Below are positions 20,543 to 22,114 of a DNA stretch of 27,621 bases, in pieces. The notes below the pieces were generated by a model, which worked only from the letters and a program-made list of their open reading frames with translations, was not told the origin of the DNA and made no database searches. This stretch comes from a virus (Duplodnaviria; Caudoviricetes): positions 1 through 27,621 of the IMG/VR virus record IMGVR_UViG_3300022930_000027; one strand, given 5' to 3'. Both the position numbers and the translations under genes were made by a program. The first letter of the stretch is position 1. Each line of letters starts with the position of its first letter.

Positions 20543-21067
20543 TTACTTGTTTAACCCCACCATTTCTGCAGTTCCGATAACTTGGTACGGTAAATCATAT
20601 TCCCATAAGCTTAATGCACCCTTAACATTCAATATTGGTTGTTCATACATTACAGGATTAGCTAACACCCAATTCCAGACGTAACTAGGCTTTTCATCTT
20701 CTTCACCAAATGGCAATGAATTGAAATTGGCAGGCTCATAGCTTTTCTCAGCCCAAATACTTTCGTGATTAAGAACACAATCAATAATATCAACTTCGCC
20801 GATGATGGCAGAATACTTCCAAGTATTTTTATTCGACAACATCAATCCATTGTCGTGAGTTGGGTCAAAATTTCGCATATTGTATTTGGCTACCGCTTCA
20901 ACTTGAGCCCAATTCAACCCCATTCCTAGACTTGCAAACGATGGCTTACCGCTCGCATGAATATAAATCCTACCTCTATGCTTAGTGCGCCAAGTTCGGT
21001 TTTCTATATCTTTAATTCCGTGTGCAATTAAGCTTGCCCAAGGTTGTTTTATTGTAAGTGTTTTCAT
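20543..21067 (-). CDS. ASCH domain protein
   Basis: LTIKQPWASLIAHGIKDIENRTWRT..RGRIYIHAS contains the GxKxxExR ASCH signature; also VKGALSLW. Confidence 0.92.
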   Translation of the reverse strand: MKTLTIKQPWASLIAHGIKDIENRTWRTKHRGRIYIHASGKPSFASLGMGLNWAQVEAVAKYNMRNFDPTHDNGLMLSNKNTWKYSAIIGEVDIIDCVLNHESIWAEKSYEPANFNSLPFGEEDEKPSYVWNWVLANPVMYEQPILNVKGALSLWEYDLPYQVIGTAEMVGLNK

Positions 21068-21147
21068 AGTTTATAAGTAATGTATGCCAGCACTAGCACC
21101 AAAAGCCAGCATATGGTTAGTGAGTGTTTGTTTATATCTTTATGCAT
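21064..21147 (-). CDS. 27-aa hydrophobic peptide, missing from the ORF track
   Basis: MHKDINKHSLTICWLLVLVLAYITYKL; stop overlaps the ASCH start (ATGA). Confidence 0.4.
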   Translation of the reverse strand: MHKDINKHSLTICWLLVLVLAYITYKL

Positions 21148-21199
21148 ATAATTACATAATTGTTAGTGGTTTTATATGCATAAGCATATATTTTGTTCT

Positions 21200-21231
21200 A
21201 AAAAAGCAGGCAGGAAACCACTCCTACCTGC
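21200..21231 (-). terminator. Intrinsic terminator ending the RNA cassette
   Basis: GCAGGTAGGA-GTGGTT-TCCTGCCTGC-TTTTTT on the minus strand. Confidence 0.85.
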
Positions 21232-21450
21232 ACAACCAACCTTAAACTTAAACTCGCCCAACTAATGGCATTCAAACCAAACATCGCCTATCCACAATAA
21301 GGGACTGGCTAGTGACATAACCTTAACAACCCAGGGTTTCCATGACGATTTTTGGCGCCATCTAGCAGGGTTCTGCTAGCCTTCTTTGTTTATATTACAT
21401 CAACCTACACGTAGGTATTGTTAAGGTAAAAAATTACCACCATGGGTACT
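21232..21450 (-). ncRNA. Candidate structured RNA domain 3' of the tRNA
   Basis: Perfect 10-bp helix (21320-21329 with 21418-21427) enclosing three hairpins; no ORF of note. Confidence 0.5.
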
Positions 21451-21456
21451 TGTTTG

Positions 21457-21529
<73 letters not shown>

Positions 21530-21533
21530 ATGT

Positions 21534-21790
21534 TGATAGTCTTTCCTATCAGTCACGATTTTACATACTTGCTGGACAATTGTTTTGCCACACTATTTCA
21601 CGGTGTATGTTTCGAGGGAGTTCGCTACGGCTCGCTTTCTCCATTTACCTATTTAGCCGAGTAAAGAATAAGGTTGAACCGATGCATTTCAGCAGTTGTA
21701 TAAGGTCTATTCTAAAGCTTTTGTAAAACTTCGACCTTCGGTCCATTGTCCTAGGAAAGGCAGCAAAATCTTTCAGTTGCCGACCTTACC
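21534..21790 (-). ncRNA. Candidate ~260-nt multi-helix, pseudoknotted RNA 5' of the tRNA
   Basis: At least eight helices of 4-8 bp including two crossing pairings; G-U pairs favour the minus strand; see findings. Confidence 0.55.
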
Positions 21791-21799
21791 AAAAATATC

Positions 21800-21991
21800 T
21801 TAATTCAATTCTTTCACTTTTCTCCAATCTTCGCCGCCATGCCCCATGATTAGTAATGTGTGACCATCTCCTTTAAAATAATACCATGAGCAACATGTAC
21901 TATCTAAAGTCATTATTGTTCCCGATGGAATTAGTTTACATCCATGAGTAATTGGCGAAGTCATTTCTTCAAGTAGTTGAATGGTTTTCAT
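21800..21991 (-). CDS. Hypothetical protein (63 aa)
   Basis: ATG at 21991 with an A-rich leader, preferred to the TTG at 22024, which lies in a terminator U tract. Confidence 0.55.
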   Translation of the reverse strand: MKTIQLLEEMTSPITHGCKLIPSGTIMTLDSTCCSWYYFKGDGHTLLIMGHGGEDWRKVKELN

Positions 21992-22022
21992 AATTGGTTG
22001 TTTTTGGTTTATTTGTTTGCCC

Positions 22023-22052
22023 AAAAAGCCCCGATACTTTTGATACCGAGGC
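22023..22052 (-). terminator. Leader terminator / attenuator
   Basis: GCCTCGGTAT-CAAAA-GTATCGGGGC-TTTTT; three G-U pairs specific to the minus strand. Confidence 0.75.
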
Positions 22053-22082
22053 GTTCTGGTTGCTTACCCTTTGATTATAACA

Positions 22083-22114
22083 CTAAGGTAAATCAAATTA
22101 TCGGATTTACCAAA
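22083..22114 (-). promoter_or_regulatory. Promoter of the leftward accessory operon with overlapping operator
   Basis: TTTG-N20-TACCTTAG (Bacteroidota -33/-7 spacing); inverted repeat GGTAAATC-N9-GATTTACC at 22087-22111. Confidence 0.6.

Follow-up and report, generated by a model that had tools for sequence, protein, structure and literature searches.

What is the nature of the 257 nucleotides (nt) that lie directly upstream of a tRNA-Met gene in the soil phage record IMGVR_UViG_3300022930_000027 (Duplodnaviria; Caudoviricetes)? The stretch of DNA analysed here, positions 1 to 27,621 of that IMG/VR record, is called the window throughout. A first-pass annotation, made from its letters, had proposed that positions 21790-21534, read on the minus strand, specify one large ornate RNA, closed by a helix, crossed by two further pairings and possibly freed by tRNA processing. 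A real, uncatalogued structured RNA is present at this place, but it is a module of 140 nt set in a modular, tRNA-linked unit, not a doubly pseudoknotted ornate RNA of 260 nt. The flagged nucleotides form the first 45% of this unit, a gene-free stretch of about 585 nt that runs from a promoter-like box to a terminator.

A conserved structured module upstream of the tRNA

The module, named M1, is very probably a genuine structured element of the unit. Its parts are as follows.

Whole unit, minus strand: leader, M1, tRNA-Met, M2, G/U-rich tail and terminator, in this order
21668-21530, minus strand: M1 module, 139 nt (BLAST, model R2, covariation in alignment A5)
21665-21661 with 21648-21644, minus strand: helix F, UUUAC/GUAAA, missing from the first-pass annotation; 3 of 5 pairs compensatory
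21642-21639 with 21620-21617, minus strand: helix A, GGAG/CUCC; 3 of 4 pairs compensatory
21610-21605 with 21568-21563, minus strand: helix C, ACAUAC/GUAUGU; 5 of 6 pairs compensatory
21592-21585 with 21579-21573, minus strand: local hairpin G, GGCAA/UUGUC, likewise new
21551-21546 with 21539-21534, minus strand: terminal hairpin D, loop GAAAGA; 4 of 5 pairs compensatory
21659-21655 with 21632-21628, minus strand: loop-loop pairing K, CGGCU/AGCCG; one covarying pair (AU in five sequences, GC in three), never broken

The fold consists of two adjacent hairpins whose loops are paired together, a long helix with a local hairpin inside it, and at the end a hairpin whose loop is GAAAGA; conserved unpaired bases and stretches accompany the helices. 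BLAST aligned window positions 21669-21533 with locus L133 at 83% identity (E 4e-35). Eight distinct M1 sequences were used: that of the window and those of seven homologous loci (L133, L157, L192, L193, L204, L207 and L210), which belong to Pedobacter/Sphingobacteriaceae prophages and to uncultured phages. Model R2 matches eight distinct loci with 130-169 bits; it gives 162.2 bits on the window, which was part of its training set, and 130-154 bits on L204, L207 and L210, which lie outside that set.

M1 shows strong covariation. In alignment A5, made with MAFFT from the eight sequences, six helices with 32 pairs in all (256 cells) were tested: 91.8% of the cells pair, and 17 of the 32 pairs have changed on both sides. 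The covariation score is 0.512 against 0.225 +/- 0.027 in shuffles, none of 500 being as high, a statistic that kinship among the sequences inflates; with the 3' partners slid by one to three columns, 31-43% of the cells paired. In hairpin D two rows are misaligned by MAFFT by one base. Compensatory changes, which the first-pass annotation had proposed to look for, are therefore present among homologues of M1, and four of the pairings it had drawn – GGAG/CUCC, ACAUAC/GUAUGU, the final hairpin and CGGCU/AGCCG – all fall within the module and are backed by the alignment.

Two pairings had been proposed to cross the other helices, and they fared differently. CGGCU/AGCCG, in which the loops of hairpins F and A pair with each other, is real and covaries. 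In the window, L193 and L207 the second of its pairs is G-C; the remaining five sequences have A-U there, and none of the eight breaks it. Both states are found inside each of three groups defined by the sequence of helix C (the window versus L133 and L157, L193 versus L210, L207 versus L204), and therefore at least three independent double changes have taken place. The second crossing, GGACAAU/AUUGUCC, which spans 170 nt, is by contrast not conserved, its 7-nt partner being found in the window only. One pair of the local hairpin, 96-104, is A-U in five sequences and U-A in three, matching the AUUGUCC/AUAGUCC variation in M1. The idea that the long pseudoknot is a covarying switch came from GGACA/UGUCC in the window and L192 versus GGACU/AGUCC in L133 and L157. 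It was set aside: L193 is without a partner even at 5 nt, L204 has the wrong partner, and the local hairpin accounts for the same change in eight sequences of eight. A covarying GGAC(A/U) 5-mer occurs somewhere in the unit of four loci, at positions that are not conserved, and two of these four hold a nearer partner inside the 3' domain described below. Within the window itself GGACAAU/AUUGUCC is a possible pairing, without comparative support.

On paper, all nine pairings of the earlier proposal exist where they were placed: the closing helix (8/8), GGCAAC/GCUGCC (5/6), GGACCGA/UCGGUUC (7/7), AGGUC/GACCU (5/5), GGAG/CUCC (4/4), ACAUAC/GUAUGU (6/6), the final hairpin (6/6), GGACAAU/AUUGUCC (7/7) and CGGCU/AGCCG (5/5). 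The final hairpin does end at 21534, 4 nt ahead of the tRNA-Met (21529). What gave way is the idea of one closed RNA of about 260 nt, as the conserved unit is M1, found elsewhere without the 5' half of the window and in other module orders.

The 5' half and the start of the unit

Three features precede M1.

21797-21790, minus strand: promoter-like -7 box TATTTTTG, of the Bacteroidota type TAnnTTTG (regular-expression scan)
21790-21754, minus strand: leader hairpin P1, with CGGCAA (21782-21777), loop CUGAAAGAUU and UUGCUG (21766-21761) (minimum free energy, MFE, fold)
21744-21676, minus strand: branched hairpin GGACCGA/UCGGUUC around AGGUC/GACCU and a small hairpin, then a U-rich run (MFE fold of the 5' half)

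TAnnTTTG is what we take to be the Bacteroides -7 consensus, transcription presumably starting about 5 nt downstream. Thirteen such boxes occur on the minus strand of the 27.6-kb window, the one considered here being the sole box between 23705 and 17899, and relatives also have such a box upstream of their leaders. Together with an intrinsic terminator at 22052-22028, ahead of the unit, it suggests that the unit has its own start near 21785. Such a start would likely fall inside the proposed closing helix and take away most of it. The closing helix is absent from the MFE fold, where GGACCGA/UCGGUUC and AGGUC/GACCU are both used.

The first hairpin had been drawn as GGCA.C/G.UGCC. A hairpin is there which resembles, by eye and by regular expression, a covarying hairpin of the family described below, but the MFE fold and the family both favour the register CGGCAA/UUGCUG, lengthened in the MFE by AAGG/CCUU and GG/CC (GG-AAGG-CGGCAA / UUGCUG-CCUU-CC). 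A regular expression, written after the window sequence had been seen, finds P1 as the only such hairpin on both strands of the window, where it would be expected. The family P1 hairpin has the loop CUGAAAnAA and, in alignment A3, is 88.8% paired with six of its eight pairs compensatory. The layout of the 5' half mirrors the family leader, namely a hairpin with the loop CUGAAAGA, a U-rich linker with AGG, a long hairpin and a U-rich run; the branched hairpin is specific to the window and stands at the position of the long hairpin and U-run of the family leaders. It is by position and by the regular expression that the 5' half would be counted in the family. Against 210 stored loci it gave short A/T-rich chance matches only.

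A second hairpin of the P1 type was seen in L002 (1341-1364: CCCCGCC-CUGAAAGAAA-GGCGGGG, then AUUUGG), in a short gap between two open reading frames (ORFs) with no tRNA unit near. Because this copy stands away from any tRNA unit, the type may serve these phages more generally, either as a terminator-like signal or as a site for a protein.

A recurrent hairpin before tRNAs

The loop of hairpin D, GAAAGA closed by G-C, is invariant, and the hairpin usually comes after UGAC. Hairpins with this loop and a stem of at least 4 bp were counted in 14 loci (89,430 nt): there are nine, all on the sense strand, all inside units and all on different stems, whereas 200 shuffles gave 1.4 on average and at most 5. 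Six of the nine are followed, 4-5 nt downstream, by a tRNA (window, L127) or by the acceptor stem of a tRNA-like element (L001, L157, L192, L193). In five host genomes, copies inside units set apart, the bare GAAAGA pattern gave 24 matches versus 64 for the reversed control. Because its host frequency is at or below the control rate, the hairpin is a feature of the phage units and not of host tRNA leaders.

Beyond the tRNA

Here the earlier picture has to be extended: the RNA would continue beyond the tRNA to the terminator at 21231-21206.

21529-21456, minus strand: tRNA-Met (CAT) (ARAGORN; Rfam tRNA, 63.6 bits)
21427-21320, minus strand: M2, an 11-bp closing helix ACCUUAACAAU/GUUGUUAAGGU around three hairpins (BLAST, alignment A4)
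21270-21200, minus strand: 3' tail, with a small hairpin, a G/U-rich stretch and the terminator (stem 21231-21206 and U run) (terminator scan, BLAST)

M2 was recognised by BLAST between window positions 21428-21319 and L002 (77%, E values of 2e-14 and 4e-15). In alignment A4, which has four sequences, seven of its 24 pairs show compensatory change; its folding z-score (z, relative to shuffles) is -2.96, and it has no Rfam match. It is common to the window, L002, L157 and L158, and in L158 it lies directly upstream of the same tRNA-Met. Its closing helix is invariant, two of its three hairpins covary, and it has long invariant unpaired stretches (GAUGUAA, CAAAGAAGG, ACCCUGGG). The tail, 21260-21190, matches that of L132 at 81% over 73 nt (E 4e-10), and the same tail is visible by eye in relatives. 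Between M2 and the tail, the short element CUAGCCAGUCCCUUAUUGUGGAUAGGCGA (21310-21275) has a near-identical copy inside the 3' domain of L184 (about 900-930).

This 3' domain (GGACUGGACGAGUACAUUU ... GUGCCAAUAGUCCGCACC) is a family feature that is not in the window, where only the short tail is found. It is present in 11 loci (L001, L002, L127, L129, L130, L132, L133, L154, L157, L158 and L184). In L133, for instance (1446-1640), GGACUGGACGAGUACAUUU is followed by a variable hairpin and then by the hairpin GGUGC-CAAUAGUCC-GCACC; without exception the domain directly follows the 3' end of a tRNA or tRNA-like element. Its loop AGUCC could form a pseudoknot with the initial GGACU.

A family of modular units

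Relatives were reached through loci related by the portal protein and then through word scans, which covered collections of viruses, genomes and metagenomes and used exact word patterns for the viral and metagenome collections. Four independent BLAST links tie the window to the family: M1 to L133, M2 to L002, the tail to L132, and the tRNA-Met to that of L001 (98.7% identity). Members lie in prophage regions of Pedobacter agri PB92, P. punctiformis, Pedobacter sp. AW1-32 and a Sphingobacteriaceae metagenome-assembled genome, in two more Sphingobacteriaceae genomes and in uncultured viral contigs.

A family unit begins with the -7 box, the P1 leader hairpin, a conserved box and the long hairpin with its U run. 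Next come a variable middle and, in the 11 loci listed, the 3' domain; a small hairpin and a G/U-rich stretch then lead to the terminator. Found in the variable middles are true tRNAs (Met, Trp, Arg+Pro, Pro+Ile, or Gln+Ala+Trp), tRNA look-alikes, minihelices made of acceptor and T-arm, structured modules, or a 225-codon ORF. In the look-alikes the acceptor, D and T arms are kept, and 65-170 nt replace the anticodon arm. Modules are shuffled: the order is M1-tRNA-M2 in the window, M2-M1 in L157 and M2-tRNA in L158, and in L157 and L210 M1 is far from promoters.

Some contents of these middles were seen in passing. Elements resembling tRNA-Leu occur in L130 (reverse, about 1243-1430 as oriented), L157 (2111-2312), L158 and L192 (1643-1762, with a second copy at about 1375-1495); they combine an acceptor stem of 7 bp with a D arm that carries GGCGGAAU(U)GGUAGACGC, a T arm and the discriminator A, are not called by ARAGORN, and are directly followed by the 3' domain or by further modules. 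Another module, missing from the window, stands upstream of M1 in L192 (about 975-1080) and L207 (about 1295-1410), with the closing helix AACAACCGU/ACGGUUGUU or the covarying ACGACCGU/ACGGUCGU. The ORF of about 225 codons, which has no Pfam family, was seen in L129 (reverse 1603-2280), L154 (1783-2454) and L001 (6587-7264 and 7277-7942); in L129 and L154 it fills the cargo position between leader and 3' domain, and by eye the copy of L154 is reminiscent of homing endonucleases of the HNH type. The units of L158, L001 and L157 have clear HNH/NUMOD and GIY-YIG genes at their flanks.

The family is thinly spread. M1 is present in 3 of 401 sampled Sphingobacteriaceae genomes, and BLAST with the 3' domain finds two genomes of the 401; the M1 model, run on 151 Sphingobacteriaceae genomes, returned only the known G002. 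Among GenBank phages, 93 records match about 11% of the query each, by the tRNA only, with no homologue of the flanks. A 14-mer scan for M2 gave 119 loci, nearly all by chance, BLAST confirming L099 only (same contig as L002), and a 17-mer scan for M1 gave three stretches, one true (the L133 contig) and two chance matches in coding or unrelated DNA. An 18-mer from the start of the 3' domain gave 14 stretches, seven being known family contigs and seven coincidences inside a phage protein gene. In genomes, 4 of its 15 stretches belong to the family (L153 and L158 by regular expression, L154 and L157 by inspection), and in metagenomes 4 of 21, L184 being the sole new one. A gapped pattern of hairpin plus tRNA-Met found no stretch.

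Relation to catalogued and known RNAs

The absence of a catalogued family was correctly foreseen: Rfam 15, scanned with cmscan over the window at the gathering threshold, returns the tRNA only. Relaxing the threshold to E<=10 over 20900-22100 brings seven matches, none of them GOLLD or ROOL and none inside 21534-21790. At the same threshold neither family matches the L001 and L002 gaps, and at E<=1 eleven related loci give tRNA matches only (seven to the tRNA family, one weak to tRNA-Sec). The motifs of a 2010 survey of 104 motifs are reportedly in Rfam. A literature search found no description of this family of units, weak evidence that it is not in print.

The earlier comparison with GOLLD and ROOL is apt for the setting, a phage and a neighbouring tRNA, but not for membership, as no Rfam model matches. 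By published description, GOLLD RNAs have an elaborate, conserved 3' region, a variable 5' region and sometimes tRNAs in the linker, one member lying beside a Met-tRNA (10.1101/2024.12.08.627333). The likeness lies in the location beside tRNAs in phages or prophages (the window has terminase, portal and tRNA-Met, and relatives lie in Pedobacter prophages) and in family relatives whose conserved 3' domain and variable tRNA-bearing middle recall the conserved 3' region and variable linker of GOLLD. However, that region is there described as universally conserved, whereas the unit of the window is without the 3' domain of its own family, and the conserved piece here is a 140-nt module which moves between loci. 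ROOL is described as one structure, 581 nt long on average, that has six multistem junctions and multiple pseudoknots and often lies near tRNA islands. It too is a structured RNA of phages and prophages near tRNAs; in contrast, we have here a string of separable modules without Rfam match.

Phage T4 makes two small stable RNAs, species 1 and 2, that are co-transcribed with its tRNA cluster and processed with the tRNAs. They offer a possible analogy, small structured RNAs freed from a phage tRNA precursor, in an unrelated host phylum. In organelles, t-elements are reported to be tRNA-shaped cutting signals that define the ends of neighbouring RNAs (Forner et al., 2007; PMC1920247); in the window, by contrast, the cutting signal would be a true tRNA-Met. 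The look-alikes of related loci, which lack an anticodon arm, could act in the manner of t-elements.

A precursor cut at its tRNA?

How, then, might the unit work? The reading we favour, and consider moderately probable, is that this unit of a Sphingobacteriaceae-type phage, running from promoter-like box to terminator, yields one precursor, from which cutting at the tRNA makes several small structured RNAs. The unit would be transcribed as a whole. RNase P would cut at the 5' end of the tRNA, 4 nt past hairpin D, and release leader and M1 together as a stable RNA of about 255 nt, its 3' end capped by that hairpin. An enzyme of 3' processing would then cut behind the tRNA and leave M2 and the tail as another RNA. 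Release by tRNA processing, as the first-pass annotation had surmised, would fit the anatomy, since relatives repeatedly show a hairpin placed 4-5 nt ahead of the 5' end of a tRNA or tRNA-like element; that RNase P is the agent we rate at about even chances. A minihelix of acceptor and T-arm suffices as a substrate of RNase P, and because of this the look-alikes of related loci could be further cutting signals. The conserved unpaired bases and the repeated GAAAGA hairpins suggest that M1 may bind a protein or another RNA late in infection.

Several observations pull the other way. Put to the comparison with shuffled sequence that the first-pass annotation had proposed, the whole 257 nt are not better folded than shuffles (MFE -61.3 kcal/mol versus -55.5 +/- 4.7, z -1.24, with 19 of 200 shuffles folding equally well; the opposite strand gives z -0.90), and, folded separately, the 5' half (21790-21669) reaches z -3.03 but M1 (21668-21530) 0.03. 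The family is small, with eight distinct M1 sequences and about 17 loci, and kinship inflates its shuffle statistics. The 5' half has no homologue in the 401 Sphingobacteriaceae genomes. Model R1, made from A3 and built without the window, does not report the P1 of the window at E<=10; its best match is an ordinary terminator, 22062-22013. Only in some loci does M1 directly adjoin a tRNA or look-alike; after it come the tail and terminator in L204, and more hairpins in L133 and L157. The look-alikes were assessed by inspection and from folds of single sequences, one with z +0.98. Finally, a search for expression found no RNA run that holds the stretch, so that transcript, ends and processing are predicted ones.

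Could the whole unit of about 585 nt, tRNA included, rather be one large ornate RNA like GOLLD, a single folded and perhaps multimeric particle with the flagged region as its 5' domain? The architecture partly invites it: as GOLLD is portrayed in the source cited above, its conserved 3' and variable 5' regions, its tRNA-bearing linker and its Met-tRNA neighbour have their counterparts in relatives with a conserved 3' domain and variable tRNA-bearing middles; the whole unit folds with z -2.71, and the covarying loop-loop pair could also work between molecules. Yet neither GOLLD nor ROOL appears in the Rfam scans just described, the window is without the main 3' domain of the family, module order and partners differ between loci, and the sole long-range pairing proposed, GGACAAU/AUUGUCC, is not conserved; we think this particle unlikely. 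We give the same low credence to a cis-acting leader or attenuator, in which the 5' hairpins control read-through into the tRNA and downstream modules, or give a leader RNA of about 115 nt. Here the leaders of relatives speak in favour – a hairpin, the conserved box GAGAGCGUUAAUU, then a long hairpin and U run that resemble a terminator – as does the plain terminator picked out by R1, the model of the family hairpin; the 5' half of the window, with its z of -3.03, has the same layout at a similar length. The U-rich run of the window (AACCUUAUUCUUUAC), however, is interrupted and not called by the terminator scan, M1 is left unexplained, with a conserved fold of its own and a place far from promoters in L157 and L210, and neither a ligand or protein nor an alternative anti-terminator pairing came to light.

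The most sceptical explanation is a functionless spacer, made of decayed tRNA remnants and recombination scars in a hotspot of homing endonucleases, folded by chance. It can call on the unremarkable z values of the whole region and of M1, on HNH and GIY-YIG genes beside the units, on look-alikes without anticodon arm that could be decayed tRNAs, and on the rarity of the family (M1 in 3 of 401 genomes). But decay gives neither 17 compensatory pairs, nor an invariant loop on nine different stems, nor conserved unpaired stretches, and because of the covariation in A5 we deem this account very improbable. A much bolder view, to which we also lend little credence, would make M1, its sister modules, the tRNAs and the look-alikes the building blocks of a phage RNA machine. 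By one route the covarying pairs between loops would act between molecules and form a multimeric particle like the cages of GOLLD and ROOL; by the other, decoys or scaffolds mimicking tRNA would protect or present phage tRNAs against host defences that cut tRNA; and one dedicated protein would dock at the GAAAGA hairpins. A shared RNA-binding protein was sought among the flanking genes of 12 loci, and none was found. A precursor cut at its tRNA remains the explanation that we prefer.

Genomic setting and coding content

The unit belongs to a phage record by its gene content: small and large terminase, SPP1-type portal and other genes all lie on the minus strand of the window. It is sited after the SPP1-type portal gene, in surroundings of HNH and GIY-YIG genes and prohead protease, and related units likewise lie just past the portal gene, amid HNH/NUMOD and GIY-YIG genes and prohead protease. 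A stretch of 730 nt separates a 63-codon ORF (21991-21800) from an ORF with an ASCH domain (21067-20543), and its sole recognised gene is the tRNA-Met. Upstream, the clean intrinsic terminator 22052-22028 sits on the minus strand 37 nt ahead of the 63-codon ORF, whose stop codon precedes the -7 box of the unit by 2 nt; the terminator scan called it and 21231-21206, at the end of the unit. This small ORF has no Pfam and no PHROG match, and inside the unit no ORF has either.

A coding reading was considered and rejected. The ORFs that overlap the region (94 amino acids on the plus strand, 33 on the minus strand) are without PHROG match, ORF63 has neither a Pfam nor a PHROG match, insertions and deletions in the M1 alignment are not in threes, and variation there is concentrated in paired columns.

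The tRNA-Met of the window has three successive G-C pairs at the base of its anticodon stem and a weak U1-A72 end pair (a U1/U72 mismatch in L001), traits which would be initiator-like.

What the locus may tell us

GOLLD and ROOL, found beside phage tRNA genes, are among the least understood bacterial RNAs. The present locus is a third and unrelated example of structured RNA next to a phage tRNA, in another phylum (Bacteroidota, Sphingobacteriaceae). Its modules, of 140 and 110 nt, are small enough for probing, mutation and structure solving, and relatives are found in cultivable Pedobacter strains, the prophages of which could be induced. Module swapping, together with the fixed arrangement of hairpin, spacer and tRNA, leads to a testable hypothesis, that tRNA-processing enzymes punctuate a noncoding phage precursor. 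If the modules bind a protein or assemble, this would be relevant to the question why ornate RNAs and tRNAs so frequently occur together in phages.

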